64,000 nucleotides of DNA, from NCBI GenBank assembly GCA_049512075.1, contig JBEKXL010000004.1:1-64000 (forward strand). Reading direction: 5' to 3'. Positions 6,501 through 62,785 of the stretch are shown here, one piece after another. The notes beneath the pieces are model-generated. The model did not search any database. It had not been told where the DNA came from and saw only the letters and a list, made by a program, of their open reading frames with translations. Position 1 is the first letter of the stretch, and each line of letters begins with the position of its first letter. The translations under genes and the position numbers were made by a program. Origin of the DNA: Candidatus Bathyarchaeia archaeon. Its GTDB lineage: Archaea > Thermoproteota > Bathyarchaeia > Bathyarchaeales > Bathycorpusculaceae.

Positions 6501-6659
6501 TTGGAGGACAGTTGTACTTATCGGTATAAAAGCGTTCTGTGTGAAACTCTATATTTCAATGGGTTCTCTTTTGCATTTAGCAGCTCTCTCCTCATCATAT
6601 CTTTCAACGCTGGGCTTAAACTTTTAACTTGTTCTTCGTCGCAAGACGTAGGCGCGCGC

Positions 6660-6850
6660 TTGCCAGACCTATCCATTCTGTCTTTATACCCATGGCAACA
6701 CTACCTACAATCCCTGACTACTGCAATGAAAATTACATCTGACATTACAAATAAAAGGGCTGAGTCCACTCTGAACAGTAGTCCAGCCTGATTTTCTCCA
6801 TGGTTTGTTACCACACACATTACATCGGACATTACAAGTGAAGGGGGGGG
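6660..6850 (+). repeat. Dispersed intergenic repeat, copy A
   Basis: Aligns by eye with 33707-33850 (+) and 42135-42325 (-); ATTACATC(T/G)GACATTACAA at 6732 and 6819. Confidence 0.9.
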
Positions 6851-7080
6851 GGACCGCGCGCGCTATTCAAAGCATAGCCAAGCTTAACGCAGATTGCTCA
6901 TTCACCGCGCGAGCCTTGCTAATACTGGGTTCACATCTACTAGCTTCAATTTCCTCCAAGACTTGAACAAAAAAGAAAAAAAGAGGGTGTTATAGAGTCG
7001 CGTCCAGAAGGCTTTTTATTCGGTATATTTACTTTTCCTAGACATAATCCAAAACTTACGTCAGGATGCGACGAGTAAAG

Positions 7081-9543
7081 ATGAAGAAACTGCCAAAGGC
7101 ATTCGACGTTCTGGAGACTGAGAAGAAGTGGGAGAGCCAGTGGGAAAAAATGGGAGTGTACCGTTTTGATCGCAACGACTCGAAACGCACAGTTTTTTCC
7201 ATCGACACCCCTCCTCCATACCCTTCTGGCGAGTTTCATGTGGGATGCGTCCTCAACTGGGCGTACTTTGACATAGTTGCCCGATACAAGCGTATGAGAG
7301 GCTACAACGTTCTTTTCCCACAGGGCTGGGACTGCCACGGCCTGCCCATTGAGGTGGAGGTCGAAAAGGAGCACAAGATCAAAAAAACCGACGTCCCGCC
7401 TGACGAGTTCCGAAGACTCTGCGAACAGCTCGTCAACAAATACATAGGCGCGATGAAAGAAGCCATCATCCGGCTTGGATACTCAATCGACTGGACGACA
7501 GAGTACAAAACTATGGACCCCGACTATTGGAGACGCACTCAACTATCCTTCATCCTGCTTTACAAGAAGGGGTTCATCTACCGCGGAACTCACCCAGTGA
7601 ACTGGTGTCCAAGATGTGAGACCGCCATAGCCGATGCTGAAGTCGAGTATGGAACGAGAAACGCAAGGCTCTATCACGTGAAATTCAAACTCGATATTGG
7701 CGGCTTCCTGGAAATCGCCACAACAAGGCCTGAACTGATTCCGGCGTGCGTGGCATTGGCTGTCAACCCAGAAGACACGCGCTACGCAAGGTACGTTGGC
7801 TCGAAGGTTCATGTGCCAAGGACCGACAGAAAAGTCGAAGTAGTAGCTGATGAAATGGCAGATCCAAAGTTTGGAACTGGAGTAGTGATGATATGCACTT
7901 ACGGGGATAAGGCAGACGTGAAGACTGTGGTCAAGCACCGTCTCCCAGTGATAATGTGCATTGACGAGAGGGGGAGAATGACGAAGAACGCTGGAAAGTA
8001 CGCCGGTTTGAGCACTGAAGAAGCGAAGGAAGCCGCGGTTAAAGACCTGAGAACTGAAGGCCTGCTGGATCGAATCGAGCAAACGACTCAAGAAGTGAGC
8101 CTCTGCTGGCGATGCCACACCCCAATTGAGATCCTCGAAAGAGAACAGTGGTTCATGAAAACACGCATGTTAACCGAACAGGTGGAAAAGACGGCTCTGG
8201 AAATCACATGGTACCCGGACTACATGAAACACCGCCTAATAGACTGGGCAAAATCACTGGAATGGGACTGGGTGATTTCAAGGCAGAGGGTGTTTGCCAC
8301 GCCAATACCGCTATGGTACTGCAGGAAATGCGGTGAAATACTTCTCGCCGAGCAGGATTGGGTGCCGATAGACCCGCGCACGGAGAAGCCGAGGATTGGC
8401 AAGTGCTCCAAATGCGGCTCAACAGAGTTCAAGCCTGAGAAGGACGTTCTGGACACTTGGTTCGACTCGTCAATCACGTGTGCAGTACACGCGGGTTGGC
8501 CTGACAAGAAAGACTGGAAAAAACGGTTTCCAGCCGACGTACACCCTTCAGGCGTTGACATTATCCGAACATGGGCTTACTACCTAATGGTCAGACACCT
8601 AGCTCTGTTTAACGAAAAACCTTACAAGAGCTGCTTAATCAACGGGATGGTTCTCGGTTCTGATGGACGTGAAATGCACAAGTCTCTGGGCAACTACGTG
8701 GCCTCGCAGGATGTCCTCGCAAAATACGGAGCCGACGCGACAAGACAATGGGCTGCGGGCGGCGGCGCAACTGGCTCCGACGTACCGTTCCGTTGGCCAG
8801 ATGTCGAGTACGGCTGGCGTTTTCTGATTAAACTGTGGAACGCTTCAGGCTTCGTAAGCAACCTGCTCACAGACTACACCGCAGACGACAAAACAAAACA
8901 CGTTCTCCAACCCCTGGACAGGTGGATTTTGAGCAAGTGTGAAAGATTAACAGCGAAAGTTACTGATGCCCTCGAAAAGTGTCAGTTCAACATGGCCTTG
9001 GAGGAACTACGCAATTTTACTTGGCACACCTTCTGCGACTGCTACTTGGAAGCTGTGAAAGACAGGTTGTATAATCCAGAGGTCTACGGACAAGAAAAGA
9101 GGAAAGCGGCTCAGTTCACCCTTTATGTAGTTCTAGAGAGGGTTCTGAAACTACTTGCACCCATAATACCACATGTGACGGAAGAGATATTCCAAACCAT
9201 GTACGCCGACGAGAAGAGTCCCCAGAGCATACACGTTTCACCTTGGCCGACGACTGATGAGAAACTCATGGATGAGGAGGCTGAGAAGCACGGAGACCTG
9301 GTGATGGCAATCATAACCGAGGTCCGCAGAGAAAAAGCAGAAAAACACTTGCCGCTCAACGCGAAGATTGCAAAATTGACAATCTGTGCCGGCGAAAAAA
9401 CCACTGCAGAAATGATAACACAGGGCCAGGAGGACATAGCTGGAACGTGTAAAGCCGTAGACATTCAAGTATTGTCCGAGAAAGGCAAGGGGCGAGAAGT
9501 CAAACCATACGACGTTTGCTTCATCGCCGAATATTCGCAATGA
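7081..9543 (+). CDS. valS: Valine--tRNA ligase
   Basis: DTPPPYPSG, GWDCHGLP, WCPRCETAIA, ATTRPE, DWVISRQR, DTW.DS; variant HIGH (HVGC) and KMSKS (EMHKS). Confidence 0.96.
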   Translation: MKKLPKAFDVLETEKKWESQWEKMGVYRFDRNDSKRTVFSIDTPPPYPSGEFHVGCVLNWAYFDIVARYKRMRGYNVLFPQGWDCHGLPIEVEVEKEHKIKKTDVPPDEFRRLCEQLVNKYIGAMKEAIIRLGYSIDWTTEYKTMDPDYWRRTQLSFILLYKKGFIYRGTHPVNWCPRCETAIADAEVEYGTRNARLYHVKFKLDIGGFLEIATTRPELIPACVALAVNPEDTRYARYVGSKVHVPRTDRKVEVVADEMADPKFGTGVVMICTYGDKADVKTVVKHRLPVIMCIDERGRMTKNAGKYAGLSTEEAKEAAVKDLRTEGLLDRIEQTTQEVSLCWRCHTPIEILEREQWFMKTRMLTEQVEKTALEITWYPDYMKHRLIDWAKSLEWDWVISRQRVFATPIPLWYCRKCGEILLAEQDWVPIDPRTEKPRIGKCSKCGSTEFKPEKDVLDTWFDSSITCAVHAGWPDKKDWKKRFPADVHPSGVDIIRTWAYYLMVRHLALFNEKPYKSCLINGMVLGSDGREMHKSLGNYVASQDVLAKYGADATRQWAAGGGATGSDVPFRWPDVEYGWRFLIKLWNASGFVSNLLTDYTADDKTKHVLQPLDRWILSKCERLTAKVTDALEKCQFNMALEELRNFTWHTFCDCYLEAVKDRLYNPEVYGQEKRKAAQFTLYVVLERVLKLLAPIIPHVTEEIFQTMYADEKSPQSIHVSPWPTTDEKLMDEEAEKHGDLVMAIITEVRREKAEKHLPLNAKIAKLTICAGEKTTAEMITQGQEDIAGTCKAVDIQVLSEKGKGREVKPYDVCFIAEYSQ

Positions 9544-14610: not shown

Positions 14611-15510
14611 TTCATTGTGCGAATGTGCACCGTCTGCAAGGCGTCTGCGGCGCCTTTGTGTATGAGTTCACTTAGCATCTTGCTTAGAGTCTGAAGTTCA
14701 CTGTTCTGGCATTCGTCCAAGTTTAGCGCGCATGCCTGTTCCTAAATTCATTCGCGAGCTGGTTTTTGTTATAGGCTCGCTTGGTTCGTGGATGACCGTG
14801 TGACTATTGATGCGAGAAGTATCGTCTGTAGGACATGGACCAACTCGTCACGCCCAAAAAAGGGAATTTAGGAACACGCTAGCGCGCTAGCTCCTATGAT
14901 AGGCAACATACAAAGCGGCCAAAATCTGCCCCTCAAACAAGTCGTATCGGACGCAAACAGGCAAGAGAAGAGCAAAAACCGCTTTACTCCAGCTCAGGAA
15001 CACACATGCGCGCCACCTCACACCCACACCCAACAAATCATATTTGGCCCCAAATAGAGGGCCCTACACCCGTTGCGCGCACACAGCGCGCGCTAAACCA
15101 ACTATTGCTACCATGAAAAACGCCACGATTAAATGTGACGGAAACGGCAGCTGAGCTGGCTTTTACTTCTTATAGCTTCTTCTGATGTACTCTGAAGGTG
15201 TCCTAGCGTCAACCTTCACGGAATCAGCCACAGGTTTTCTTCTGGCGTTGGCTTACCCCGAATCATCGTTCTGGATGCAGTAATTCCTCCTATGGCACCA
15301 TAGTGCCTTCGCTGTTAGGCTTGCATTCTTTTTGGTTCCATAAAGATTCAGTGCGCGCTGTGTGTTTCATGTCTTTTCTGTGGGGCTATATGGGCAATTC
15401 AATCGTACAATGCTCGGGCGGCTTTGGAATAGAAGTTACTTCCATAAGTGTTTATTTAGTGAGAAAGTGTTAGAAATGTCAGGAGGAGATATGAGGATAG
15501 ATACCTCAAC

Positions 15511-16390: not shown

Positions 16391-16863
16391 CATAACCACA
16401 GATAGCGCGCGCGCTTCACTAGAGGATATATGCTTGGTGGCCACTCTCATTCACACCGATTCAACGTAGGCTTCTGAGCATTCTGAACCTAATGTTTGCC
16501 CTTACGGTCGTCTTTTCCAGCTCAAGTTCACACGAGCGAGGCCTAAGCTTCTTTGAGTCAGGGAACTTTTCCTAAACCTGGGACAAATCGGGATTGGGAA
16601 AATCTTTGTAGACAATTAAGACTGAGGTAATGGTGAGAGAAGCCTTCTCCTTTTCTCACGCCACTACTAATACGAAAGTATGCTCAAGCTTTATAATGCG
16701 TTGTTGCCTTGCTTGGCATATATCGCTTTTCATCGTATATTTCCTTTCATACTAGCGTACAGGGTTAAGCAGTATTTCGAATCTTTATTCGAATGCCGTA
16801 AGCTTTACTTTTGTTGGATGCCAATGTCTCACCTAGGCCGCAAGGGCCTCGTGTGGGAATTTA

Positions 16864-18133: not shown

Positions 18134-18590
18134 ATCCCTCCGGTCACCTCTATGAGATGCTATCTCGCTTTCACCCTAAGAATTCTGCCCTGCCAAAACA
18201 ATGGCTCATTCTGCGGCTTTCAATTTCGAATTAGACTAAAAATGTCAACTGACTTCATTTCGAACCATTGACTCCAGTCTTGAGTTTAAACGAATACGGC
18301 AATCCGTGCAAATGTGGCTGCGATAAAGCCAACCGCGCCCGCAAATGGTGGTAAAAAACCAAAATCATTAAAACCACGAAGCCGAAGGAGAAAGAGGCAA
18401 GCTTCTCGCAAAAATGTTACGCCCTGGTTGCCTCGCCATAATAGTATTCCAATGCACGCGTGTGCGCGAAGGATCGCCTGCGGATTAAGGTTATATGCCG
18501 AGGACGATGGAGATGTCTCCCGCAAATCCCCCTTTTTCTTTTTTTGATGCGGTCTGGTCGGCGAATTAGGAAAGTCTGAGGTGAATTTTT

Positions 18591-19475
18591 TTGGCTGGGG
18601 CTCGTGGAAGTAAAAATTCTCGCCGTTCAAAGTACAAAGTAAAATTTGACTTCACTACTGTTCGCACGTGGATCCTTCCTATCTTACGTAGAATCCAGGC
18701 CGGGGACTACCCGACTAAGATTGGGCGCTTGGTAGGCCTGAGCCGGCAACACGTTCACTACTATCTCAAGAAACTTGAGGAGTGCAAGCTGATTCATAGA
18801 GAGAAACGGTCCAGTGTGGTGTTCTATGAGTTGACTGGCGGCGGTACAAACTTTCTCAGGTCATGTGAGGGTGTGGTTTTTCCTGGGGAGCTATACAGAT
18901 TGGATAAGTGTCAGGTTGGTTTTGGGATAAGGGTTGAGGGTATCGTGCCGTCGGATGGGTTTAGGCGGGTGGAGATGCAGAATTGGACGGCTTTGTTGGG
19001 GCTGGAGCAGGGTGTGAAGGTTCGGCATACTAGTAGGAGTTGGATTGTGCACGTGGAGGTTATTCGGGGTAAGAGCCCGGCTGAGGTTTACGGTTTAGCG
19101 TTGAACGTTGCCAATCGGGTTGCTGTAGCCTTGTGCAGGAAGTACGGTTGCGTGTTGAGTGAGGGCAGGTTTATGGCGGGTGAGCTGGCTGTTGAGGACC
19201 CTGTGGCAAAATTGTTCGGCCGCTACTTCACTGTAAGTACGCCAAGGCGAGAGATTGATCACAGTTGGAAGGTCGGTGAGCTCGAAAACTTGCAGAAGGA
19301 TGCGGTTATCGAGTACCTTCAGATGCCGGAACGCGTGAAAAAGATGGAAGGACAAGTTGAGCGTTTGCACGCGGATCTCGAGGAACTCACTGGAGCTCTG
19401 AAAAGATTTCTTGGCTTGGAAGGCGCTGCGCAGCCGAGCGCTGATCAAAGTCGCCTTGACAGGTGTGTGGCTTAG
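18591..19475 (+). CDS. N-terminal wHTH protein with uncharacterised central domain and C-terminal coiled coil
   Basis: PTKIGRLVGLSRQHVHYYLKKLEECKLI helix-turn-helix; GAGGTGA RBS. Confidence 0.75.
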   Translation: MAGARGSKNSRRSKYKVKFDFTTVRTWILPILRRIQAGDYPTKIGRLVGLSRQHVHYYLKKLEECKLIHREKRSSVVFYELTGGGTNFLRSCEGVVFPGELYRLDKCQVGFGIRVEGIVPSDGFRRVEMQNWTALLGLEQGVKVRHTSRSWIVHVEVIRGKSPAEVYGLALNVANRVAVALCRKYGCVLSEGRFMAGELAVEDPVAKLFGRYFTVSTPRREIDHSWKVGELENLQKDAVIEYLQMPERVKKMEGQVERLHADLEELTGALKRFLGLEGAAQPSADQSRLDRCVA

Positions 19476-19649
19476 GGGGTGTTTTGGAAGTGAAGTCGTG
19501 TTCAAAGGCGGTTTTGGGGCTAGTGTTGGGGTATGGTAAAAGTCCATGCTTTTGGGCGTGTGCTCTTCTTGTCTCTGTTGATGTGGGTTGTGGAAGCTCT
19601 GGTTTCGCTGTCTTCAACATGGCCATTATGCTGGAGTGAGCGTTTCTGA

Positions 19650-20120
19650 ATGGAGACTAACGCTGAACCTGTTCAAACATCGAGAAAAAAGCGTTTACAA
19701 GAGGTGAAAGTGGGTAGGGTCAAGTACACTTTGCAGTTGGTCAAGGGGATTCAGCGTGACATTGAAGAGATTAAACTTGCGCAGCGCACTATCTTAGCAG
19801 GCTTAAAGGGTCTTTTCCATTTTGAACGGCCTGTGATTCAGAGAATTGCGTGCGCAAATGAGGTTGATGTTGAGATCCTGGAGCTTTTGTATGAGTCTGG
19901 ATCCGCCGGTATGCTGCCGAAGAATTTGGCTGCCGGTTTGATTGATTTCAGGGTTAGGCGCCATCAGGTTAGCCGCAGGATCCTGCGCATGAACAAGCGC
20001 TTAGAGAAGGAAGTGGGTGAGCGATTGGTTGAGAAAAGAGGTTGGCACTGGGCGCTTACAAGTTTCGGGTTCAATGTTTGGGGAGAAACTGAAGAAATAA
20101 GGAAACCACAGGCGAAGTGA
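19650..20120 (+). CDS. Hypothetical protein with probable C-terminal wHTH
   Basis: DVEILELL..PKNLA..RHQVSRRI..VEKRGWHW pattern. Confidence 0.65.
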   Translation: METNAEPVQTSRKKRLQEVKVGRVKYTLQLVKGIQRDIEEIKLAQRTILAGLKGLFHFERPVIQRIACANEVDVEILELLYESGSAGMLPKNLAAGLIDFRVRRHQVSRRILRMNKRLEKEVGERLVEKRGWHWALTSFGFNVWGETEEIRKPQAK

Positions 20121-20323
20121 AGGGTTAGCGCGCACTGTAAGCTGTAGGACCCAATAAATCTGAAAGGGGAAAAGAGAATATGAACAACGAACAGGAGAAA
20201 GCAAAATCGAGTTTAGCGCTCTGCGCTAAAACAAGAAAAGCTCTGCTTCTGCTCTTCCTCGTGTATTGTTACAGAAACTCCTGATTTCATCATTTATTAT
20301 TAGGGCACGCGCGTGCTGTCTCA

Positions 20324-20638
20324 TTACTCTCCGGGCGGCATGCCCAACAGAGCGAGTATCAATAGGATTATTATCACAGCATAAGTCACTATTATGGTCC
20401 AGAAGAATATCTGGGCAACGTTCGTTAGGATTTTCGCCTTTTTCGACTGTTGCCTCCAATGGTGAGCGCAGGACGATATTATGGCAAGCGCGAAGATGGC
20501 AAGCGCGAAGATGGCAAGCAACAGTAGCCCATTCATAAAAACATACCACAGCGGGAACAGGGCAGAGCCAATTCCCGCCAAAACAGCAACCACGTACAGG
20601 GCAAACCTGTATCTTTCAATAGTGCTCACATTGCTCAA
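20324..20638 (-). CDS. Small membrane protein
   Basis: Three hydrophobic segments; internal 15-bp tandem repeat. Confidence 0.5.
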   Translation of the reverse strand: MSNVSTIERYRFALYVVAVLAGIGSALFPLWYVFMNGLLLLAIFALAIFALAIISSCAHHWRQQSKKAKILTNVAQIFFWTIIVTYAVIIILLILALLGMPPGE

Positions 20639-22961
20639 ATCCTAGCGGGCGCTTCCTGGTGTGCACCTTGACGGATTTCTTCTTCGCCAAAATGATAACT
20701 GTTGGCAAGCTGACGCATATTAGTAAAACGACAAAACACGAAAATTCAGGTATAGTTCTCCAAGGTTCTGGCGGCTTATTCAGTACATAGAGAGCTAGGC
20801 ATGTTGTTTCAACATTTTCTGTTGCGTTTCGATCTGGAATTATGCCTGGTAGGTAATCTGTTCTAAATCCTCCATTCGGCATCTGCATTTGACAAAGTAT
20901 CTGAGTATAGTTGTAAGGAATGCTTTGTCCCAAAATCTGGCTACAGATCAGGACCAAAGCGACCTTGTAAGTCTGGTATTCATCCCCAGATTTGCCGTCG
21001 TTGACGCCTTCTGGCGTGCACATAGTATTAACCAATGTTGCAAAATCTGTGAGAGCTTTCGTTCTGTTGTTGAGCCACCATTCATCAATGATTCCGTACA
21101 CGAATAAGTCGGCATAGCTTTGCCAATCCGGTATCTGTATGTATTTTCGGTCATTTCTGACGATGAAACTACCGCTATCGATTATTCTCTCCGCTTCAAA
21201 ATCATCCGCATACAACTCGCCAGTTCCGTTCGTTGTCAAGAATCTCACATCTGCATAGCGAGCTTCGGATGGGCAAGTAAAATTGAACAGCACCAGTTGT
21301 GTCCAATTAGAATAGGTTCCGGGGCATATCTGTGTGAAGTTCTCTCCGATCCATTGTTGCGAGCTGTTGAACCATCGAAGATAGATGTACCAGTTGCCAC
21401 CGGTTACGTTGCCTTCCACGTAACATCTGACCAAGTAGTTTCCTAGGGGTTCTACAGTGAAAATGCTGGATGTCCAATCAGCGTCATCGGAAGTGACATT
21501 GAGCCCAATACTCTTCAGTCCTGATCGCGCATAATCTGATGACCAAGGCGTCGCAATCGGATTTGGAACTAAGTGAGACCAGTTATATGGACTCTGAGAA
21601 CCATTCTCCACGCTTGGATTGAGAATTAAGTTAGCGGTCAGATTCATATCGTCTGCGATGATCGGTGAGTAGTAATCTCCTGTGCTTGTGTAGGGTGGGT
21701 AGAGGATTGTTTTGTTGTTGAAAAGAACTTCGATTCTGTCGTTACCGTCATCGTAGTCTTCACCCACATACTTGCTGTAGTTATCTATAGTACGTCCGAT
21801 TTTGTCTCTAGTATCGTAATGCCCGTAAATGTTGAAGATTTGAAGAAGCAGCGCATTGTCGTTGTATATCCAGTAGGTTTTTGAACCATTGTACTCGCTG
21901 GCTAATCCCACACTATCATTGTAAAGCGACTCAAGAAACTGCAGCGCTTTGTCTCTGTCAAATGTGACAGTTGAACCCTGCGCGCGCGCACACATAATCA
22001 AACTTCTGTGGTAGCCAGTTAGGTCATATATGTATGAGCTACTGTATGCTGATGTAGAGTCGTTACAAGGTTCTATTTGCGTTCTTTCGTGGTACTCGTT
22101 CCAAGTAGAGATCATAATTATAGATGTATTGCCAGAGTTTGCCTCTGTGATGGCTTTGCTCCATTGTTTGTCGTAATAACCTTGTTCATATGTGACGTCG
22201 AATGTTGAATTGGGATTGCGTTGATGTCTGTCATCATATCTTGGACAAACGTCAATTTCCTCGTTTTTGCATACAGGTTGACCTCTTGGAAGATAGGGTT
22301 GGGGCATAGAAGATTGATCATCGAAAGACCAGTAGACCCAGTCAGTATAGTTTTGATGTCCAGATATTCTGGTTGTGAACCTATCATCTTTGGGATATGT
22401 TCCGTTTGGAGTAAAGTAGTCCTGTTGGTTGTATAGAACTATTAAAGGCTTGTCAAGGAAATGGAAGTAGATGCTTTGAAAAGGAGTTACGAATGTATCA
22501 TAGATATAATCATATACGATTGGAAAGTTGTACACTCCACTGGATTGGTTAAAGGTCTCAAATAGTATGGCTGCTTGTATGCTTAGATTGTTGTCCTTGA
22601 TTACCTGAAACACTTTCTTAGCATTGTCGTCAATATAATGGTTCGATGGGTCAGTAAAATTGCCTGCACCCCACCAAGAAATCAGTACAAAATCAATGTG
22701 AATGGCTATCATCTGCTCCAATTGGTTATATAAGGTTACATTGGAATTGGAATCATAGAATCCTATGTCTGGGGTGTCCACAACTTTGTTGAAAGAATCA
22801 TTCCAATGTGCAGTGTCCAAACCGGTACTCCCATTGCCATACCAGACATAATAGTAAATTCCAACCTTCACATTCACTGTAGAGGCAGCAGAGACATAAG
22901 GTTTAGGAACAGAAGCAAAAAAAACAAGTGCTAATATGACTAGTGCAGCTACTTTGGTCAT
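20616..22961 (-). CDS. Secreted, surface-anchored GH99-like glycoside hydrolase with CBM-like domain and PEF-CTERM-like tail
   Basis: Signal peptide; YYVWYG, SWWG, PRYDD and WNEYHERTQIEP motifs; NLILNPSVE..YADDF CBM4/9-like segment; IPEF + TM + KKK. Confidence 0.8.
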   Translation of the reverse strand: MTKVAALVILALVFFASVPKPYVSAASTVNVKVGIYYYVWYGNGSTGLDTAHWNDSFNKVVDTPDIGFYDSNSNVTLYNQLEQMIAIHIDFVLISWWGAGNFTDPSNHYIDDNAKKVFQVIKDNNLSIQAAILFETFNQSSGVYNFPIVYDYIYDTFVTPFQSIYFHFLDKPLIVLYNQQDYFTPNGTYPKDDRFTTRISGHQNYTDWVYWSFDDQSSMPQPYLPRGQPVCKNEEIDVCPRYDDRHQRNPNSTFDVTYEQGYYDKQWSKAITEANSGNTSIIMISTWNEYHERTQIEPCNDSTSAYSSSYIYDLTGYHRSLIMCARAQGSTVTFDRDKALQFLESLYNDSVGLASEYNGSKTYWIYNDNALLLQIFNIYGHYDTRDKIGRTIDNYSKYVGEDYDDGNDRIEVLFNNKTILYPPYTSTGDYYSPIIADDMNLTANLILNPSVENGSQSPYNWSHLVPNPIATPWSSDYARSGLKSIGLNVTSDDADWTSSIFTVEPLGNYLVRCYVEGNVTGGNWYIYLRWFNSSQQWIGENFTQICPGTYSNWTQLVLFNFTCPSEARYADVRFLTTNGTGELYADDFEAERIIDSGSFIVRNDRKYIQIPDWQSYADLFVYGIIDEWWLNNRTKALTDFATLVNTMCTPEGVNDGKSGDEYQTYKVALVLICSQILGQSIPYNYTQILCQMQMPNGGFRTDYLPGIIPDRNATENVETTCLALYVLNKPPEPWRTIPEFSCFVVLLICVSLPTVIILAKKKSVKVHTRKRPLGFEQCEHY

Positions 22962-23052
22962 ATAAAATCCCTCATAAAGCGCGCGTATCTAATACAAGCT
23001 GAGAGGAAACAAGTTGTTTCAAAAAAACGAGTTAGCGCGCGTGCCTAGCAAT

Positions 23053-23790
23053 TTAATCCCTTCCTCTGCAAGCCTCATATCTCGAATCATACAAGTGCCC
23101 CAATACGTAAAAACAAAAGTAGTTTCTCCACCACACCTTGTAGCTCTTTAACAATCCCCATTGTCTAAGTCTTCGACTGGACTCAAAAACGGGAGTTGAC
23201 AACACCTTTGTCCTTCCATAAGACGATGCTTTCAGCAACATATCCGTTATCTCAAGCATGTGAAGTTTTTCGTTAAACCCTTTTATCTTGTAAAAGATGT
23301 CTTTCCTTATTGCAGTCATGTCTCCTCTGTTGTAGAACTTCAATAGAACACTCAGATGAGCGCATAACCTGACGTATAATCCATCTAACACATAGAACAA
23401 GACAGCAGAGAGCGTTTTTCGTCGAGATGAAGGTAATACGCGCGAGATTACTGAAACCACTGCCGTATCTCTGAACTCTTTGGCGACATCAATGAGCGAA
23501 GACTTCTGCAACGTTGTATCTGCATCCATGAAGATCAAGATGCTTCCTTTGGCAAGACTCGCGCCGAAATTCCTTGCTCTAGAAACACCACTGGGAAGAA
23601 ACGTGTACACGTTTTTGACGTATTTCCTTGCTTCTCTAAACGTGTCGTCAGTACTACTGTCTACAACGATTATCTCTGTACTGACCCCGTGTCTTCCAAC
23701 TTGGTCGCTTGCTTCAAGCACCTTCCTCAAAGTTTTTCCTATATACTTCCTCTCATTCCTAGTGGCCAAAATAACTGAAAAGTCTACCAT
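23053..23790 (-). CDS. Family 2 glycosyltransferase
   Basis: SVILATRNE, VVDS.TD, ARNFG, DAD, GFNE. Confidence 0.9.
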   Translation of the reverse strand: MVDFSVILATRNERKYIGKTLRKVLEASDQVGRHGVSTEIIVVDSSTDDTFREARKYVKNVYTFLPSGVSRARNFGASLAKGSILIFMDADTTLQKSSLIDVAKEFRDTAVVSVISRVLPSSRRKTLSAVLFYVLDGLYVRLCAHLSVLLKFYNRGDMTAIRKDIFYKIKGFNEKLHMLEITDMLLKASSYGRTKVLSTPVFESSRRLRQWGLLKSYKVWWRNYFCFYVLGHLYDSRYEACRGRD

Positions 23791-23856
23791 TCAACCACAT
23801 CCCAAAACTGCATTAAGAAGTAAGTGGCAGTTAATTCCTGTCTTCTTGACTACCTT

Positions 23857-23916
23857 GTCAACGATTGTTGACCTACAGCCTGTTTTTCATAAGTGTTGTT
23901 GTCAACAACTGTTGAC
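23857..23916. promoter_or_regulatory. Two GTCAAC-N4-GTTGAC palindromes (putative operators)
   Basis: 23857-23872 and 23901-23916, between the divergent GT2 and ArsR-like genes. Confidence 0.55.
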
Positions 23917-23988
23917 TACCGATTCGGTGATGGTTGATATGGCAAGGATTAATTACAAGTGGTTTACAGAAGGGTTTCAGGACTTGCA

Positions 23989-25122
23989 ATGGTAGATCCT
24001 GCGGAACTCTTTGAGGCTATCTCGCATCCTGAGCGAATAAAAATTCTCAAAATCCTTGAGAAGCAACCTACCAGCTTTGCTTCTCTGAAGAGACAGCTGG
24101 GTATTGACAGCAGCGGGAACCTCGACTACCATCTCAAGAAACTCGGAGAACTAGTGGCAGTCAGAGGGGATGGGTTGTATGGGTTGACAGACGCAGGAAA
24201 AGAAGCACTCCTTTCCATTGACGCAGTAGAAACGTGGGCGGAAATGGAGAGGCGCAAGGTAAAGATGTTCAGGAAAATGCCCAAGGAAGCGTTTGCCTTG
24301 GGGTTGCTGGAAATTTGCACGGCAGCTTTAATCTTCTTGTTCTTCTTGGCGCCAGGGCAATGGCCTTTTAACGGGAGGGACAGCTTATGGGGATATGTCT
24401 TTTTTGGAGCCCTGTTACTCACAGGCTTTCGTTCTGGCCTTGGCGTATTCTTCCGTTGGAGATGGAGTTGGACGATGGTTCTGGCCAAATCAGCCCTGAT
24501 CATGTCAATGAGTCTCTTTCTACTGGACTACATATGGAAACCAGGGGCAGTCACACAATCAAGCTTCGTGGCGCTTTCGTACTTGGCGTTCGTTGCTGCA
24601 GAAATAGCTGCTGTAATCCTGGCATTGAGACGTCCCCTGAAGGATTACCTTGGAATAATAAATTGGGCCAAACTGCCCCGCCGTGACCTCATCGGCAGCC
24701 TACTATGCATCTCCGGCGGAATACTGCTAATTCTTCTTGCAAATGCAGTTCGCTTTCTTGTCCTTCCGCACGCACCAGACTTACAACTACTACCCGACCA
24801 TGTTAGCACAGTTTTCGCCTCTATGTCCGACACATCCATCCTATGCGGCTTACTCATAATGGTTGGAGGCGTTCTAATTCTGCTAAGAAGCAGCATCCTG
24901 GGCGCCGCAATCAGCATTATCTTCGGGCTTTTCCCCACTCAACTTCCACTTTCTATTCCATCCTGGCTTCCACAACAAACCACCCACCACGCTTTCGAGC
25001 TCATTACGGGAATAGACAAATCATCAGCATATCTCTTCGTGATCGCCGCAGTAGTCTATTCTCTACCCATAGTTGGAGGGCTACTTGCTCTATCCAGTGC
25101 GTGGCGAAAAATCCGAACATAG
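23989..25122 (+). CDS. ArsR-like wHTH fused to a multi-pass membrane domain
   Basis: FEAISHPERIKIL..SSGNLDYHLKKL..YGLT..G followed by several TM helices. Confidence 0.8.
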   Translation: MVDPAELFEAISHPERIKILKILEKQPTSFASLKRQLGIDSSGNLDYHLKKLGELVAVRGDGLYGLTDAGKEALLSIDAVETWAEMERRKVKMFRKMPKEAFALGLLEICTAALIFLFFLAPGQWPFNGRDSLWGYVFFGALLLTGFRSGLGVFFRWRWSWTMVLAKSALIMSMSLFLLDYIWKPGAVTQSSFVALSYLAFVAAEIAAVILALRRPLKDYLGIINWAKLPRRDLIGSLLCISGGILLILLANAVRFLVLPHAPDLQLLPDHVSTVFASMSDTSILCGLLIMVGGVLILLRSSILGAAISIIFGLFPTQLPLSIPSWLPQQTTHHAFELITGIDKSSAYLFVIAAVVYSLPIVGGLLALSSAWRKIRT

Positions 25123-25307
25123 CGCGCGTTAGTGAGCGGGAAACAGGTTGAAAGGGCGATAAAAAAGGGGATAATTGCGACCTCAGCCTTGACTGCTTGA
25201 TGTTACTTGAGCGCGCGCTGTCGCTATGGCCCTGCCTTTTCGAAAATCTTGACCCTTCAAGCGCGTGCGAATGATTGGTTTATATGAATTTAAGCAGAAA
25301 GCGAGTG

Positions 25308-25467
25308 CTAAGAAGGCAAGATTTCGTTGCAGACGCGGTAGTGTGCTAGGAATGTTCGTCCTTTGTCTGTGATACTTACTTTGGTGTGTCTCTTTCCTAT
25401 TCGCTCAGATATTATCAAATCGTTCTCGACTAGGGTTCTTGCGAAGAAATAGTTGATGCGCGCGCGC
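25308..25467 (-). pseudogene. 3' half of a small archaeal wHTH regulator
   Basis: ARINY..LVENDLI..ITDKGRTFL is a recognition helix plus wing; N-terminus lost at GCGCGCGCGC 25458-25467. Confidence 0.6.
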
Positions 25468-26129
25468 TCAAAATTGACTGGGATCCACCAAAATACAAGC
25501 AAGAAGAAACATTGCCGTTCGTCCCCGAAGAAAGCGAACTTGACCAGCTTATCGCCGCGTCACGAGGCAAGAGAATAACCGCTTTCCTCCAATGCCTCAA
25601 AGAAACCTACGCGGATCCAGGAGAAGTTCTTGCGCTTCGATGGATAGACATCTCAGGAAACATAATAACAATAAACAAGCCAGTCAAAGGCCATCTCCCA
25701 GGACAAATCCAAGTCTCCAACAAACTGCTCGCAATGCTGAACAGCCTACCCAAAACTTCAGAACGCATCTTTCCAGTAAGATATCAAAGCATTCTTCAAT
25801 CCTACTGGAACCTCCGAAAAAGAGCTGCCCGACTTCAACAGAACCCGAGGCTCCTGGCCATACAGTTCAGATCCTTCAGGCACTGGGGCGGAAGCATGCT
25901 TGCCCACTATACGAACGGAAACGTTCTCACAGTAAAGAAACTGCTAAGGCACAAAAGAATCGAGAGCACGATGAAATACATCAGCATGATACACTTCAAA
26001 GACGACGAATTCGAGGTCACATCGGCCACGACCACAGAAGAGGCCAAGCAGATTCTGAGCGCAGGCTTCGACTACGTAACCCAAAAAGACGGCATAATGC
26101 TCTTCAGAAAACCCAAAAGATTCCGCTAA
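25467..26129 (+). pseudogene. 5'-truncated tyrosine recombinase/integrase (catalytic domain only)
   Basis: LKIDWDPPKY..LPFVP, FRSFRH, LLRHK.I.ST.KY; integrase-like sequence begins at the GCGC run; no N-terminal domain. Confidence 0.82.
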
Positions 26130-26208
26130 AAAACCAGTGGTATACACGCAAAACTAGTCGGATTAAGGTTATATACTATTTCGGTTTTTGTTATTGTCGG
26201 TCGGGCAA

Positions 26209-42134: not shown

Positions 42135-42325
42135 CCCCCCTTTCATTTGTACTGTCAGATGTAATGTTGCATTGTTACAAACCATGAAGAAAAACACACT
42201 GGGCTATCCTTCAGAGTCGACTCAGCCCTTTTGTTTGTAATGTCAGATGTAATGTGTATTGTAATAGACCAGGGATTGCAGGTAGTTGCCCGTGGCACAA
42301 AGACAGAATGGCTAGGTCTGGCAGG
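42135..42325 (-). repeat. Dispersed intergenic repeat, copy C (inverted)
   Basis: Reverse complement aligns to copy A, including GCCAGACCTA.CCATTCTGTCTTT. Confidence 0.9.
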
Positions 42326-42350
42326 CCTACTACGCCGTTGCCGTCTGCGT

Positions 42351-43070: not shown

Positions 43071-43223
43071 GCACTGTCACATAGAATATGAGCACAAAGC
43101 CTTAAAAGTTCAGCGCCCGCTAATTCAGGGACAAGCCAGCGCGCGACCTGACTTTGTGTCATCTGTTGATATTGTGAGAGTATTTTACTAATTCAATTGC
43201 GTAGCCGATTTGACCTTTCTCTT

Positions 43224-45524: not shown

Positions 45525-45880
45525 CCCTACTATTCCTTGCTATAACTAGTATTTATAATAAGCAGGGACAATGCGCGCGCGTCTGGTGACACTCTATGCA
45601 CATAACATCTAGCGTGCGCTCTTTCTTTTGCTGTTCGCGGAAATAAGATCGCATGTCTCCAGATGACGACTTAAGCCGCTTAAACGCGTAAACCGATACC
45701 CGTATAAGGGTGTATGCACATTATATCATATAAGGATAAGCTAAAAGGATGGATGTACAATGATAACCGAAACAAGAGCAATACTTTGGCATATGGCAAT
45801 TTGCTTATTGGAAGAACCTCTGACACGTGCGAATCGTGACTAACAAATTGAAGCAATACAAAAACAGGTTGGTAATTGAA

Positions 45881-46903: not shown

Positions 46904-47131
46904 ATGGCAATGACGTCAAGAGGATACATAGATTTCAACTGCGATTACTGGTGCGCGTTCTGCGGGCGCAAAGTTCCTAAAGGACAGGAAAAACATGACA
47001 GCCTAGGCCGTCCGATAGACTGGAAATGCGGGCACCTGCTCCGCTACAAAGTAAGAAACAAAAATCAGGGAAAAGACAAAACTTTACCCCCAACCAAACC
47101 AAAATTGGGGACTTCACAAAAACTTTTTTGA
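46904..47131 (+). CDS. Small putative zinc-binding protein
   Basis: CAFC..CGH.LR; GGAGG RBS. Confidence 0.45.
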   Translation: MAMTSRGYIDFNCDYWCAFCGRKVPKGQEKHDSLGRPIDWKCGHLLRYKVRNKNQGKDKTLPPTKPKLGTSQKLF

Positions 47132-47453
47132 CCACGCTTTTTGTGACAATCTGAATTTTTGTAAATGAAACTTACCGTAAGAATACTAGCGTGCGCTGGG
47201 CATCCAACCTTTGACGCTGACCGTTGAGAATGTCAAAGCAGAGTTGAGCAATCTGAAGAGAATAGTCAGGAGAATTGAAGAAAAAAGATGGCTCCCGCTG
47301 TTATGTGCAACATGTGAAAAACCGTTGTCGCTAGAATTCAAGCTATGCCCAAAGCATACAGGTAAACACGCTATTCTCAACTTCAGTCAGCCCAAAAGAA
47401 GTGCCTTGAACAGAAAGCGCGCCTGTGTTGCCATCTTCTTAAGCACCTCCCTT

Positions 47454-61269: not shown

Positions 61270-61338
61270 GCTTGTTCAACAGGAAATGGGTTTACATTGA
61301 AAATAAAGGTTGCTGGAATCTCCGATAAAACAGTGGAG

Positions 61339-62448
61339 TCAGCCTTTGCTCTCTTTAATGAAACTCGTGAGTTGCCTTTGATTCTTCTGTTCCTTGGCAA
61401 AGTTTGAGATTTTGACCCCTATTCTGCGTGCCTCAGACCCTGTTTGATCTAAGAACTTCTCGAGCAGTTCCTTCACAGTTCCTTTCAAAGCTTCAAGGCT
61501 GTCTATGGGGTTTTCGAGGGTTTTTGATCTCGTGTGGATGCTCATGTCTGTTGTGATTACAATTATCCCGACAGTCTTGTACTCAAGCCTGTCCTTTGCG
61601 ATTGTGGCGTGTATTTCATTGCATAGTTGATCCGTTTTTTCCAGTATGAAGCTAAGCACACGAGAGTCATGTTTTAAGGTTGAGATTCTGCTGATTGACG
61701 TGGCCTCGCCTCTCTCTTGAACCGGTTCGTCGTCCATTCCTAGGGAGGCATTGTGGAAATACGTCGCCAGAGTCTTGCCGAAAACGGCGATTAGCTTCTG
61801 CATGTCATAGTTTGACAGGTCAAAGATTGTGTTAATCCCTAGCGCTTGCATTCTCTCTCTAGTTTTCGTTCCGACACCTATGAGTCGGCTCACGGGCAGC
61901 GGTGCTAGAAAGACTATGACCTGTTCGGGCGTGACGACGGTTAGGCCGTCGGGTTTTTTCGTGTCGGCCGCAATTTTTGCGACGAGTTTGTTAGGTGCCA
62001 CGCCGATTGAACACGCGAGTTTCTGTTGGCGTAGTACTTCGCTCTTAACGCTTTCAGCAAGCTTTCGGCCCTCTTCGAAACTTCCATTTGCTCTTTGGGT
62101 CACGTCAAGATAGGCTTCGTCTATCCCAACCTGTTCAAAACGGTCTGCGAAGCCTTTCAGGGTGTCCATCACTTTCCCGGAGATTTCCTCGTAAAAAGCA
62201 TAGTCCACAGGCAGGAAAAGTGCATTGGCACTCTCCAGTTTTTTCTTGGCCAGGAAAATGGGCATTCCTGATTTCACGCTGTACTCCCTGGCGATATAGT
62301 TCGCCGTACTTACAGCTCCGCTGTCTTCTGTTCGTCCGGAATAGACGCACACTACAACAGGCCTGCCTTTTATAGAGGGATTCCTGAGCTCCTCGCACTG
62401 GGCAAAGAAATAGTCCAAGTCCACAAGCATAACTACCCTTGACTGCAA
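61339..62448 (-). CDS. dinB: Y-family DNA polymerase IV
   Basis: DLDYFFAQ, NY.AR, IDEAYLD, SIG..NK..AK.A, KPDG. Confidence 0.94.
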   Translation of the reverse strand: MQSRVVMLVDLDYFFAQCEELRNPSIKGRPVVVCVYSGRTEDSGAVSTANYIAREYSVKSGMPIFLAKKKLESANALFLPVDYAFYEEISGKVMDTLKGFADRFEQVGIDEAYLDVTQRANGSFEEGRKLAESVKSEVLRQQKLACSIGVAPNKLVAKIAADTKKPDGLTVVTPEQVIVFLAPLPVSRLIGVGTKTRERMQALGINTIFDLSNYDMQKLIAVFGKTLATYFHNASLGMDDEPVQERGEATSISRISTLKHDSRVLSFILEKTDQLCNEIHATIAKDRLEYKTVGIIVITTDMSIHTRSKTLENPIDSLEALKGTVKELLEKFLDQTGSEARRIGVKISNFAKEQKNQRQLTSFIKESKG

Positions 62449-62785
62449 TGGCTGCCCCCTAATTGAAAATTCTTGCTGGACATTTACGTCTTCTGATGTG
62501 CCAACTCAGCGCACACACTTGACAGATGGCTTTCTGTGCGAGAAAGCCACAATGGGTTACCGTTTATTAGCCTCTAAGAACCACCTTTCTTTTCAATTCA
62601 TGGACACGGACTTACCCGTAAATCCTCTGTTTGCAGCGCACGCGCATTTGCGTTTTCAGTCAGCCACTCGGTATCGCTGAGCAGCAAACATCGAAACTTC
62701 AGGTCCAATATTTGTCCATCCGAGGTTGAAATAGTGCTTTAACGAAAGATAACTCTTTTCGCGCGCGCCTAAATCCGCGTGCCAA

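Follow-up and report, generated by a model that had tools for sequence, protein, structure and literature searches.

REP elements are imperfect bacterial hairpins of 20–40 nt with a GTAG head, moved by RAYT (Y1) transposases; integron attC sites are structured sites of 60–150 bp found beside an IntI integrase; the palindrome HIP1 is conserved and frequent within genes; and PIF/Harbinger elements are the eukaryotic relatives of IS5. Tobes and Pareja (2006, PMC1525189) describe insertion sequences that specifically target REP elements, and the account of mPing, a PIF/Harbinger Tourist MITE, reports that it excises precisely and that its target preference is extended (PMC2836001). HIP1 (GCGATCGC) is presented as the highly iterated palindrome of cyanobacteria (PMC5861425; PMC4390886), tied to orphan methyltransferases (PMC4390886), and the mobile GC clusters of yeast mitochondria as elements that merge and shuffle and whose mechanism of transposition is unsettled (PMC4478555).

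Here we analyze a 64,000-nt stretch of archaeal DNA (“the window”) in which the octamer GCGCGCGC recurs. Judging from sequence comparison, we consider it an evenly balanced proposition that genus-restricted IS5-type DDE transposons and their MITEs insert preferentially at this octamer, which would also be the signature of their empty sites; if so, octamers would be the points at which one archaeal genus gains, loses and swaps DNA segments.

Abundance and form of the octamer

A scan of the whole window for alternating CG of 8 nt or more returned 14 maximal runs and no further ones, starting at 6652, 6855, 15086, 16405, 21980, 25211, 25458, 31249, 33692, 33910, 41990, 42541, 45573 and 62760; these are precisely the runs reported in a preliminary description, which had put the expectation at about one per 64 kb. 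Dinucleotide-preserving shuffles expect fewer than one: GCGCGCGC has 18 matches in the window versus 0.87 expected and CGCGCGCG has 10 versus 0.65, values reached in none of 100 shuffles. Runs of at least 6 nt number 39, and among the 25 that are 6–7 nt long are the shorter copies previously listed at 14726, 14882, 15008, 20128, 22979, 23035, 25122, 41376, 42374 and 43139; the run placed at 15352 is present too, its true start being 15353. Three others on that list (43861, 45612, 47189) are one-mismatch forms of the GCGTGCGC type.

Genome-wide, GCGCGCGC is the top over-represented 8-mer (646 observed versus 45 expected; 581 sites), with ~80% of its sites intergenic. The reported absence from housekeeping coding sequences agrees with a crude ORF caller, which places 11 of the 14 window sites in intergenic DNA, the others lying in a 781-aa ORF (21980) and in doubtful ORFs of 64 aa (25458) and 54 aa (41990). 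The length is sharply (GC)4, with (GC)5 rarer and longer forms almost never seen (core counts: (GC)3 680, (GC)4 451, (GC)5 93, (GC)6 3), and maximal 8-nt runs read GCGCGCGC in 250 cases versus CGCGCGCG in 34; so fixed a phase and length speaks against an origin as generic Z-DNA repeats or by slippage. As for the TAG or CTA said to be attached very often, a TA preference is real but weak: A stands at position −1 in 51% of (GC)4 and 69% of (GC)5 flanks and T at position −2 in ~40% of motif flanks, and base composition around the motif gave no flank signal beyond position −2.

An intergenic palindrome of 8–12 bp that is somewhat commoner after stop codons (146 within 60 nt downstream) than before start codons (72 within 60 nt upstream) might be a protein-binding, terminator or Z-DNA site under chromosome-wide selection, but its density is alike in tandem, convergent and divergent spacers (0.79–1.08 per kb), its decay products are abundant, and few sites are conserved between sister species. 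Since, of 66 sites on the sister species' contig, only 4 fall in conserved syntenic DNA, a chromosome-wide architectural or binding role, the latter offered earlier as an alternative, is unlikely, and we judge selection for such a functional site very improbable.

The octamer excess is limited to one genus, with 168–646 copies in each of its five genomes and 0–53 in each of 21 relatives outside it. Sites 31249, 41990 and 45573 are spanned in contigs of independent public runs, and the genus shows the enrichment in five genomes, each assembled separately; both indicate that the motif is not an assembly artefact.

Such a pattern might also reflect an autonomous iterated palindrome of the HIP1, REP or GC-cluster kind, spreading by a drive of its own (biased repair, a dedicated enzyme or selection), with the insertion sequences as secondary specialists; hundreds of identical GC-rich copies would then provide microhomology for ectopic recombination that shuffles the intervening segments. 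The genus-specific top rank among 8-mers fits this explanation, as does the enrichment of one-mismatch derivatives, greater for transitions (observed/expected 2.5) than for transversions (1.6), which points to continual birth and decay of the motif. We nevertheless regard it as unlikely: the motif, unlike HIP1, is under-represented in coding sequence and in conserved DNA and is too short for REP or GC-cluster hairpins, no driver enzyme was identified, and the IS200-type Y1 transposase that is present has hairpin ends of its own. A search of 26 genomes for C5 cytosine methyltransferases (PF00145) gave none above the cut-off, so that a HIP1-like methylase link is unsupported.

Insertion sequences and MITEs with GCGCGC ends

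All five genomes of the genus carry IS5-family insertion sequences of ~1.1 kb whose ends start with GCGCGC. Two related ~1.1-kb insertion sequences code for a transposase with DDE_Tnp_1 and DUF772 domains, and inverted repeats beginning with GCGCGC were present in every copy examined (contigs C32 and C39 of genome G000; G001, G002, G003 and G004). The inverted repeat of the G002 copy, GCGCGCATGCGTGTTCCTAAATT, is that of the MITEs. The MITE superfamily of G000 (92 repeat-like matches and 28 inverted pairs, the pairs spanning 131–1331 bp) is derived from these insertion sequences, and the two insertion sequences and at least 28 paired MITE copies have GCGCGC at both termini. Transposase orthologs are 83–100% identical in four of the five genomes; the fifth, G002, has a subfamily of 44% identity, which is also present in G000, and identity is at most 38% in the other 21 relatives. 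The close subfamily thus has the same genus-limited distribution as the motif enrichment.

Within the window, a 162-bp MITE (14724..14889 with its flanking dinucleotides) reads TA-GCGCGC-ATGCCTGTTCCTAAATTC...GAATTTAGGAACACGCTA-GCGCGC-TA. The element (14726–14887) is missing from the sister strain L076, which has TTTA-GCGCGCGC-TAGC at that place; one octamer at the empty site means that 6 + 6 − 8 = 4 bp were duplicated. A second empty site was found between species, where a MITE end of G002 (L082) faces TTA-GCGCGCGC-TA in contig C11 of G000. These two are the only empty-site comparisons obtained, a number that counts against the octamer as an insertion site, and 10 other loci with an IS or MITE in relatives gave no orthologous site in G000 that could be matched on both sides. 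Six near-identical 162-bp copies are flanked by TA/TA, TT/TA, TA/TA, AC/TA, CG/TT and GC/TA, so that the dinucleotides outside the GCGCGC ends are unduplicated, young copies included. Such mixed pairs indicate that TA is a target preference and not a duplication, leaving GCGC as the sole possible one. TA is found at ~70% of MITE ends versus ~20% of solo-motif flanks, and the lower rate at solo motifs also speaks against insertion at the octamer.

The preliminary description had listed a transposon footprint among several options, and of these a transposon fits best, given GCGCGC-ended IS5 elements and MITEs in every genome of the genus and a polymorphic MITE in the window. We propose that the transposase would cut the octamer with a 4-bp stagger (GC/GCGC/GC), its strand transfer preferring TAGCGCGCGCTA, such that the 4 bp GCGC would be duplicated on insertion; excision would be precise, as in the PIF/Harbinger relatives of IS5. 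Varied elements and DNA segments may then come in, go out and recombine at octamers, and this traffic would account for a motif that brackets mobile modules and marks the truncation points and the indel and synteny breakpoints of the flexible genome. For solo octamers at new places, our leading guess is a by-product of excision and end joining.

Breakpoints, captured segments and solo octamers

The earlier claim that the motif marks DNA junctions stands in part: its coincidence with breakpoints of indels, synteny and repeat homology exceeds chance, and it occurs at 21 of 65 homology-break ends in comparison with the sister species, but only some one in three to one in four breakpoints have it, the rest being IS200 insertions, an att-bounded island or unexplained. 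A 363-bp block (14732..15094), limited by GCGCGC (14726–14731) at its start and GCGCGCGC (15086..15093) at its end, stands where G002 has 2658 bp of other DNA, and homology with G002 restarts at the latter motif. An 873-bp block (42266..43138), holding the motif 42541–42548 and ending at GCGCGCG (43139–43145), is replaced in G002 by 68 bp between CGCGCGC and GCGCGCG, and a 142-bp block (45535..45676) that holds the motif 45573–45581 by 9 bp. A 7-nt run common to G002 (41376..41382) lies 6 bp from 4795 bp that are extra in that genome; the motif at 41990..41998 is kept in G002, and that at 62760..62768 is intergenic, 17 nt from the ORF 62786–63202.

The suggestion that the tyrosine integrase of the window uses the motif is contradicted by its 7.66-kb island (18497..26158; glycosyl hydrolase, transferase and HTH genes and an integrase fragment). 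Absent from G002 and strain L076, the island is flanked by a 16-bp direct repeat, CGGATTAAGGTTATAT (18481–18496 and 26159–26174), and not by the motif. The 205-aa Phage_integrase fragment (25512..26129, + strand; PF00589, E 2.3e-6) lies at its right end, with a (GC)5 motif directly upstream (25458..25467); a (GC)4 motif (25211..25218) is intergenic inside the island, and a (GC)5 motif (21980..21989) lies within the GH99-like 781-aa ORF (20616–22961) of this strain-specific DNA. Single genes do stand between motifs in flexible regions (TBP and Alba paralogs at C1:104777–106269; contig C35, with 23 separate motif sites in 17.8 kb), and one site in one genome can correspond to site, segment and site in another, as for a unique 110-bp segment between motifs in contig C26 of G000 where G002 has one motif. 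Both would suit a crossover core with which a tyrosine recombinase moves cassettes in integron-like fashion. This is nonetheless extremely improbable: the window's only integrase-bearing island has other boundaries, the lack of a conserved arm beyond 2 nt from the octamer leaves no more than 12 bp for a recombination site, fragments from a motif-free source are capped by motifs as well, and no integrase linked to motif arrays was found.

Several observations count against insertion at the octamer. The motif itself appears as clean indels of 7–11 bp, and four of these (+7, +8, +10 and +11 bp) are unpolarized, with no GCGC in the other allele. At 16405..16414, a (GC)5 motif is a clean intergenic 10-bp indel relative to G002, without target duplication in otherwise aligned DNA; the motif at 31249..31257 is strain-polymorphic, being absent (7 nt shorter) in L076 and GCGTGCATG in the contigs of run X2. 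A 101-bp internal gene piece (C35:3316–3416), 98% identical to C29:10319–10419 of G000, has a motif on each side while its large source gene has none, and a transposase dependent on inverted repeats should move neither this piece nor the 110-bp segment. For 96 unique motif-abutting repeat ends, a partner copy lacks any CG run at the corresponding point, and in 35 of them the partner boundary is within a called gene.

Repeat family 0 likewise has no inverted repeats apart from the motif that brackets it, and four of its copies are older than the species split. In the window, a 212-bp copy has a (GC)4 motif at its left edge (6652..6659) and CGCGCGCGC at its right (6855..6863), the truncated repeat between them (6660..6854, + strand) covering positions 34–218 of a 287-bp reference. 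A 227-bp copy is edged by a (GC)5 motif at a homology break relative to G002 (33692..33701) and by a motif that G002 keeps (33910..33918), and a long copy (42127..42350, − strand) adjoins a MITE-type inverted-repeat end at GCGCGC 42374–42379.

An end-joining or DNA-capture process that writes (GC)4–5 at every joint, with the insertion sequences and MITEs exploiting the resulting sites, would leave a solo octamer at a simple rejoin, a deletion plus octamer at a resected one and an octamer on each side of a captured fragment. The clean indels of +7 to +11 bp, which show no duplicated target, conform to this, as do the motif-flanked 101-bp fragment from a motif-free source, the ~10–20 nt replaced by the motif in the family-0 copy at 6652 and in C28, and the 279 bp (46955..47233) for which G002 has 19 bp, TG-GCGCGCGCG-AGAATCCC, with the motif at the deletion or replacement joint. 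The 105 adjacent motif pairs (73 8/8, 28 8/10, 3 10/10, 1 10/12) are close to the roughly 73/29/3 given by independence of neighbor lengths, which argues against simple full-site duplication and agrees with such filling. A complete operon of Ku, LigD primase-polymerase and ligase-phosphoesterase is present at C16:5124–8191 of G000. This Ku–LigD operon, however, does not track the motif: it occurs in three of the five genomes of the genus, was not recovered from G003 (93% complete, 253 octamers) or G001 (77% complete, 168), and G010, with only 7 octamers, has it. Tailing should also yield broad lengths and joints of mixed phase, but just 8 copies each of GCGCCGCGC and GCGCGGCGC are seen, the supporting indels are unpolarized, and no polymerase known to us writes a fixed (GC)4; the process is, in our estimation, distinctly unlikely.

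An octamer with its own drive draws further support from a route by substitution (GCGCGCGCG in the window versus GCGTGCATG in run X2, and single-base differences from G002), from the G002 octamer that is octamer, 110 bp, octamer in G000, and from repeats, which almost never extend through a motif.

Comparison with described systems

Integron arrays resemble the present loci in that flexible regions hold single-gene modules set between copies of a recurring site, but here there is neither a structured site of 60–150 bp nor an adjacent IntI integrase. As described, the yeast GC clusters are, like the octamer, short GC-rich intergenic palindromes whose presence varies between strains; GC42, an organellar hairpin of 42 nt, duplicates AG at its target, whereas the octamer is 8–10 bp long, forms no stem-loop and is chromosomal. 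HIP1 shares, in the published accounts, the form of a GC-rich octameric palindrome, tens- to hundreds-fold over-represented and lineage-specific; the archaeal motif differs in having no C5 methylase (PF00145) found with it, in avoiding genes and conserved DNA and in its quick turnover.

REP elements, as portrayed in their description as insertion targets, are also abundant intergenic palindromes, hot spots for particular transposases and linked to genome plasticity, whereas here a perfect (GC)n of 8–10 bp with no hairpin potential is found in an archaeal host with a specialist insertion sequence of the IS5/DDE type. For mPing, the account tells of MITEs mobilized in trans, of an extended target preference and of a target restored by precise excision. 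The element mPing duplicates TAA or TTA (3 bp), where the octamer would have GCGC duplicated within a GC-only palindrome; the restoration of the target by precise excision agrees with the finding, in this archaeal genus, that the octamer is intact where the element is missing.

A GC octamer in excess between genes

Exactly 14 starts of maximal alternating-CG runs of at least 8 nt were found in the window by pattern search and run finder; the 14 positions named in a preliminary description of this sequence were all recovered with none extra, and most of the shorter copies it listed are among 25 further runs of 6–7 nt. Dinucleotide-preserving shuffles predict 0.65 and 0.87 copies per window for the two octamer phases, and the observed counts were matched by 0 of 100 shuffles. 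The window is typical of its assembly (2.73 Mb in 86 contigs), since 581 runs of at least 8 nt amount to a genome-wide density of 13.6 per 64 kb. The genome-wide enrichment that the preliminary description had asked for is there as well: against a third-order Markov model, GCGCGCGC, that is (GC)4, ranks first among all over-represented 8-mers of the assembly (646 observed, 44.6 expected), a hyper-abundance of an octameric palindrome in the manner of HIP1. The motif observation is confirmed and statistically overwhelming.

Maximal runs in the assembly measure 8 nt (n = 284), 9 nt (n = 186), 10 nt (n = 105) or more (n = 6), and the (GC)n cores from (GC)2 to (GC)6 number 6938, 680, 451, 93 and 3; as (GC)3 matches its Markov expectation (~669), only (GC)4 and (GC)5 are in excess, and the excess ends abruptly. 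Phase, too, is fixed: maximal 8-nt runs read GCGCGCGC in 250 cases and CGCGCGCG in 34. Given the fixed GC-start phase, the near absence of (GC)6 and the excess of (GC)4, we rejected dinucleotide slippage and a generic Z-DNA repeat, the latter having been one of the options raised at the outset. Flanking bases are weakly informative: the base at -1 is A in 51% of (GC)4 and 69% of (GC)5, that at -2 is T in ~40%, and no conserved sequence was found in the motif flanks of the assembly farther than 2 nt from the 8–10 bp core.

By our own ORF calls, spanning 81% of the assembly, 468 of the 581 sites are intergenic, with a density of ~912 per Mb between ORFs and 47 per Mb within them. In the window our crude ORF caller places 11 of 14 sites between genes; site 21980 falls within an ORF of 781 aa that belongs to a strain-specific island, and two others within doubtful short ORFs. 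Tandem, convergent and divergent spacers have like densities (0.79–1.08 per kb), which speaks against a promoter-specific role, and a promoter or terminator element was rejected as the main explanation on the same ground. Among other features of the window, a TPP riboswitch at 6391-6504 (-) (Rfam RF00059, 65 bits) overlaps the first 51 nt of ORF 5113-6441, for which a TTG start was called, and ORF 43224-43673 (-) contains four tandem 54-bp repeats at 43416-43631 that are 63–74% identical to the reference copy.

One-mismatch derivatives of the octamer are enriched (observed/expected 2.5 for transitions, 1.6 for transversions), which fits an ongoing birth and decay of copies and does not fit strong purifying selection. 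The ratio of intact to one-mismatch copies, computed as a decay test for genomes without Ku, is 4.25 in the window's own assembly (G000), 3.4 in the sister species (G002), and 4.1, 2.8 and 1.9 in the congeneric genomes G004, G003 and G001, a comparison that background occurrences confound. Motif-site differences between strains are mostly CpG-type transitions (window 31252, 31255 and 31256 against public sequencing run X2; G002 143202 and 10918), three of them clustered in a 5-nt stretch of 31249-31257. They could reflect modified cytosines or a biased conversion.

The enrichment is confined to the genus. Counts of GCGCGCGC are 168–646 in all five of its genomes and 0–53 in 21 further relatives of its family and order, with 30 in G013 and 53 in G021; matches to TBP, Alba and archaeal flagellin domains show the host to be an archaeon. 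Contigs of the independent public runs X2–X5 bridge sites 31249, 41990 and 45573, and a metagenome contig is identical to window 10293-25180, three motif sites included; this evidence, drawn from contigs, shows both bridging and strain variants, and it disposes of the assembly artefact that the preliminary description had allowed for. The X2–X5 contigs break at repeated elements, as is expected of repeats.

Joints of variable DNA

The runs had been proposed to mark junctions between DNA segments, and comparison with the sister species bears this out in part. G002 is 88–96% identical to the window and syntenic over positions 1-53991. The syntenic blocks are separated by 11 gaps, 6 of which are flanked by a CG run on one side or on both in one of the two genomes. 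Of the 65 homology-break ends on a whole 245-kb contig of G002, 21 lie within 14 nt of a run of 6 nt or more in either genome, where ~3–8 would be expected by chance as estimated from intergenic density, and 8 have a run of 8 nt or more; at ~17 of these ends the motif lies within 4 nt, judged by eye. Only 4 of the 66 octamers on that contig lie in the 102 kb of long syntenic alignment, and 62 in 143 kb of variable DNA. Within G000, 115 of 2475 unique repeat-alignment ends abut the motif (random intergenic mean 39, maximum 51), and repeat alignments hardly ever pass through one. The excess at synteny breaks and repeat ends upholds the proposal in part; many breakpoints have other causes, including a 557-bp IS200-like element and an att-bounded island.

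The IS200-like element (G000 C21:29284-29840, and at ~20 contig ends) encodes a Y1_Tnp protein of 139–144 aa, has end hairpins CCCCGGGG-CTTG-CCCCGGGG, uses insertion points preceded by CTATT and is responsible for many contig breaks; with hairpin ends and boundaries of its own, its Y1 transposase was rejected as a REP/RAYT-like mover of the octamer. The island (window 18497-26158), absent from both G002 and the sister strain L076, contains a Phage_integrase fragment and has the 16-bp direct repeat CGGATTAAGGTTATAT at its bounds. It represents att-type integration of the ordinary kind, without relation to the octamer, and the suggestion that a tyrosine integrase uses the motif fails here, the island being bounded by CGGATTAAGGTTATAT. 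No integrase was found beside the motif arrays in the stretches examined of C35, a flexible 17.8-kb contig of G000 with glycosyltransferase and flippase-like genes and 23 separate motif sites.

Accessory TBP and Alba paralogues are each bracketed by motifs (for example C1:104777-106269). At 50% identity or more within a family, G000 has eight TBP, six Alba and eight winged-helix regulator paralogues, many of which sit in flexible regions between motifs (for example C1:104874-105974, C21:1776-2336 and C4:131096-131656). A second joint-marking repeat, GGATAAAACTTTACCCCAAACC..., occurs at window 43820-43850 and 46600-46630 and at C39:3069-4117, and contigs of run X5 skip window 43844-47077.

IS5-type elements and their derivatives

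A multi-copy 348-aa protein (G000 C39:6585-7631) matches PF01609 DDE_Tnp_1 (E 5e-12) and PF05598 DUF772 (E 1e-8), and is a DDE transposase of the IS4/IS5 type, encoded within an element of ~1.11 kb with inverted repeats GCGCGCTG(G/C)CTTGTCCC(T/G)AAATTA. Across six IS copies from five genomes the terminal inverted repeats have arms of 23–38 nt lying 1026–1067 nt apart, and every arm begins GCGCGC, those of the four IS copies examined in relatives included. Orthologues of the transposase at 83–90% identity are present in G003, G001 and G004, a subfamily at 44% identity in G002 (C7:99699-100670) and G000, and the best match outside the genus is at 38%.

Short non-autonomous derivatives (MITEs) share the GCGCGC ends. 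The copy at window 14724-14889 (162 bp) has inverted repeats of 24–26 nt, GCGCGCATGCCTGTTCCTAAATTC, a repeat with 92 repeat-like matches and 28 inverted pairs in G000; six 162-bp copies are 96–99% identical to one another. The repeat of the G002 IS copy is the MITE repeat, and this IS is therefore likely the autonomous partner of the MITEs. At C7:18443-19773 a candidate autonomous element between MITE-type repeats proved to have no transposase gene and only a hydrophobic-looking ORF of 235 aa. A single large MITE family behind all sites was rejected, as 410 of the 581 have unique flanks. A tRNA gene (window 14512-14610 (+), 96–99 nt, Rfam 60 bits) lies ~115 nt before the window MITE; ARAGORN gave no clear anticodon for it, and it may contain an intron.

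The window MITE has moved recently. The occupied site reads TTTA-GCGCGC-[150 bp]-GCGCGC-TAGC and the corresponding site in L076, with flanks 99–99.7% identical, reads TTTA-GCGCGCGC-TAGC; in a second, interspecies case, a G002 MITE end is placed where G000 C11 reads TTA-GCGCGCGC-TA. GC amounts to 6 + 6 nt at the occupied site and 8 nt at the empty one, which implies a 4-bp GCGC duplication, although in so repetitive a sequence a TA duplication with 4 + 4 nt left fits the single case too. The dinucleotides outside the GCGCGC ends are unlike on the two sides in 4 of 6 near-identical copies, which argues that TA is preferred at the target rather than duplicated. A Tc1/IS630-type origin of the MITEs, suggested by the TA flanks, was rejected for an IS5-type one, since the outer TA is unduplicated in young copies; nor does an IS630-type transposase fit as a candidate, the sole DDE_3 match in G000 (C58, a 1.9-kb self-overlapping contig) being without GCGCGC ends. 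This contig (1927 bp), with its IS630-type gene, is by eye more GC-rich than the genome and may be a binning contaminant.

For 4 IS and 6 MITE copies of relatives no two-sided orthologous empty site was found in G000 (MITE flanks for loci L077–L082 were taken ~100 nt farther from the element); at several of these ten loci the best left- and right-flank matches were on different G000 contigs. At one of them, L082 (G002 C7:13303-15051), the left inverted repeat of the MITE is interrupted at ~660-965 by a second short element, GAGACTGTG...CACAGTCTC, a nested insertion.

The simplest reading of these sites would be that the element inserts at the octamer centre with duplication of the 4-bp GCGC, and that its excision is precise. 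We put the chances at about even that the motif is explained by a genus-specific IS5-type transposon and MITE system with the octamer as its site. The transposon option raised in the preliminary description gains from the GCGCGC-ended elements and the empty octamer in L076, and leaves unexplained both solo octamers and a gene fragment of 101 bp.

Octamers without a transposon and comparison with known systems

Solo octamers are seen as clean indels of +10 bp at window 16405 relative to G002, of +8 and +11 bp at G002:17911 and G002:139848 relative to G000, and of +7 bp at window 31249 relative to L076, where X2 contigs read GCGTGCATG; no target duplication was found at these four. G003 and G004 have diverged too far in their intergenic DNA to serve as outgroups for the polarity of gain and loss, and a metagenome scan for polarity returned two loci, both with the motif-bearing spacing. 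An origin by doubling of a GCGC target (GCGC to GCGCGCGC) is unsupported, with clean indels of +7 to +11 bp at sites without GCGC; TAGCGCTA is not enriched in G000 (12 observed, 16 expected) and AGCGCT is depleted (469 observed, 658 expected). Solo octamers at sites without GCGC count against the IS5-type explanation, as such a transposase should not produce them there; they may be by-products of excision and repair.

Other events involve whole segments. A 279-bp stretch at window 46955-47233 has as its G002 counterpart TG-GCGCGCGCG-AGAATCCC, and 873 bp at window 42266-43138 are replaced in G002 by 68 bp bracketed by motifs; at a further G002 locus (L096) one run corresponds to a 110-bp segment enclosed by two runs on G000 C26. 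Of a 287-bp reference repeat that is multi-copy in G000 (family 0), six copies of 279–287 bp are known, with the motif on both sides on C13, C8, C26, C3 and C6 and with only the right-hand motif intact on C1. Truncated copies have the motif at many different truncation points, namely left-hand reference positions 9, 29, 34, 43, 73, 75, 79 and 85 and right-hand positions 218, 231 and 265, and four family-0 copies lie at orthologous places in G002 and are therefore old. The family core, in which the box ATTACATCTGACATTACAA is twice repeated, is found at window 6697-6846, 33703-33848 and 42138-42275 (-) and at 45 loci in G000, and is well conserved between species; rather than a transposon, family 0 could represent a gene for a small RNA or a module with a regulatory role.

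Some fragments are capped by the motif. The 101-bp piece at C35:3316-3416, internal to a gene and 98% identical to C29:10319-10419, has the motif directly on both sides and its source gene has none; a transposase dependent on inverted repeats should not move such a fragment. Across the genome, the partner copy of 96 unique motif-abutting repeat ends is without a CG run at the corresponding point, and 35 of these 96 partner boundaries are inside a called gene. Motif pairs at most 140 bp apart enclose unrelated short sequences in 64 cases, some of them tRNA 3' pieces. Neighbouring motifs vary independently in length, 105 adjacent pairs comprising 73 of 8/8, 28 of 8/10, 3 of 10/10 and 1 of 10/12.

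The capped gene fragment, the tRNA 3' pieces, single accessory genes and truncated repeats would all be accommodated if a genus-specific joining or capture process put (GC)4-5 at every joint, so that captured DNA received an octamer on each side and deletions left a single octamer as scar, the IS5-type elements having evolved as scar specialists; we nevertheless hold this to be unlikely. A candidate agent would be Ku-LigD end joining, whose operon is uncommon in archaea. The complete operon at G000 C16:5124-8191 encodes a primase-polymerase of the LigD type (280 aa), a Ku protein of 270 aa, and a 467-aa ligase carrying a fused 3'-phosphoesterase; the modules are PF21686, PF02735, and PF01068 together with PF04679 and PF13298. 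Among 26 genomes searched it is present in four (G000 C16, G002 C3, G004 C9 and G010 C53, the last a relative with 7 octamers) and was not found in the octamer-rich G003 (253) or G001 (168); it fails to track the octamers, and therefore cannot alone be their writer. Capture by Cas1, as in CRISPR or casposons, was rejected, there being no Cas1 match in the octamer-rich G002 (97% complete, 460 octamers) and G001. G000 itself has four to six Cas1 homologues (C2:64761-67585, C1:348834-349859, C43 and C37), at least one of which (C2) adjoins one of three multi-copy ParB_N-ASCH genes. The octamer might instead be an autonomous iterated palindrome whose copies double as microhomology.

We found no description of the motif in the literature on archaea, on insertion sequences and transposases, or on Bathyarchaeia insertion sequences and MITEs, supplementary files apart. 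If the transposon explanation is true, the motif is a clear example from archaea of a short, hyper-abundant palindrome on which a dedicated family of transposons and MITEs lands and which is a marker of flexible-genome rebuilding, with a candidate transposase whose target would be a defined 8–12 bp. If the motif is written at joints, it would reveal a new repair or capture mechanism, a sequence-tagged illegitimate recombination as yet undescribed. The motif provides a sequence handle for locating variable islands and the joints of rearrangements in this group's metagenome-assembled genomes, and a tractable system for studying how HIP1, REP elements, mitochondrial GC clusters and other iterated palindromes originate, a matter that portions of the papers on HIP1 (PMC5861425; PMC4390886) and on GC clusters (PMC4478555) present as an open question.

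The octamer differs from HIP1 in its placement, as it does not spread through coding and conserved DNA (468 of 581 sites intergenic, 4 of 66 in conserved synteny). Nor did a search of 26 genomes with PF00145 find, above cut-off, a cognate orphan DNA methyltransferase of the m5C type, and C5 methylase drive was rejected on that count, for m5C only. A hairpin-forming imperfect palindrome with a domesticated Y1 transposase flanked by REPs, as in REP/RAYT systems, was not found, nor, for the window's island and the motif arrays examined on C35, was an integrase acting at the recurrent site in the manner of integron cassettes and their tyrosine recombinase. The PIF/Harbinger superfamily is related to IS5. 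It includes mPing, for which precise excision and an extended target preference are described in sections of PMC2836001, and the insertion and precise excision that we infer at the octamer would resemble this behaviour. A bacterial precedent is given by insertion sequences specialised on REP palindromes, as set out in part of PMC1525189.
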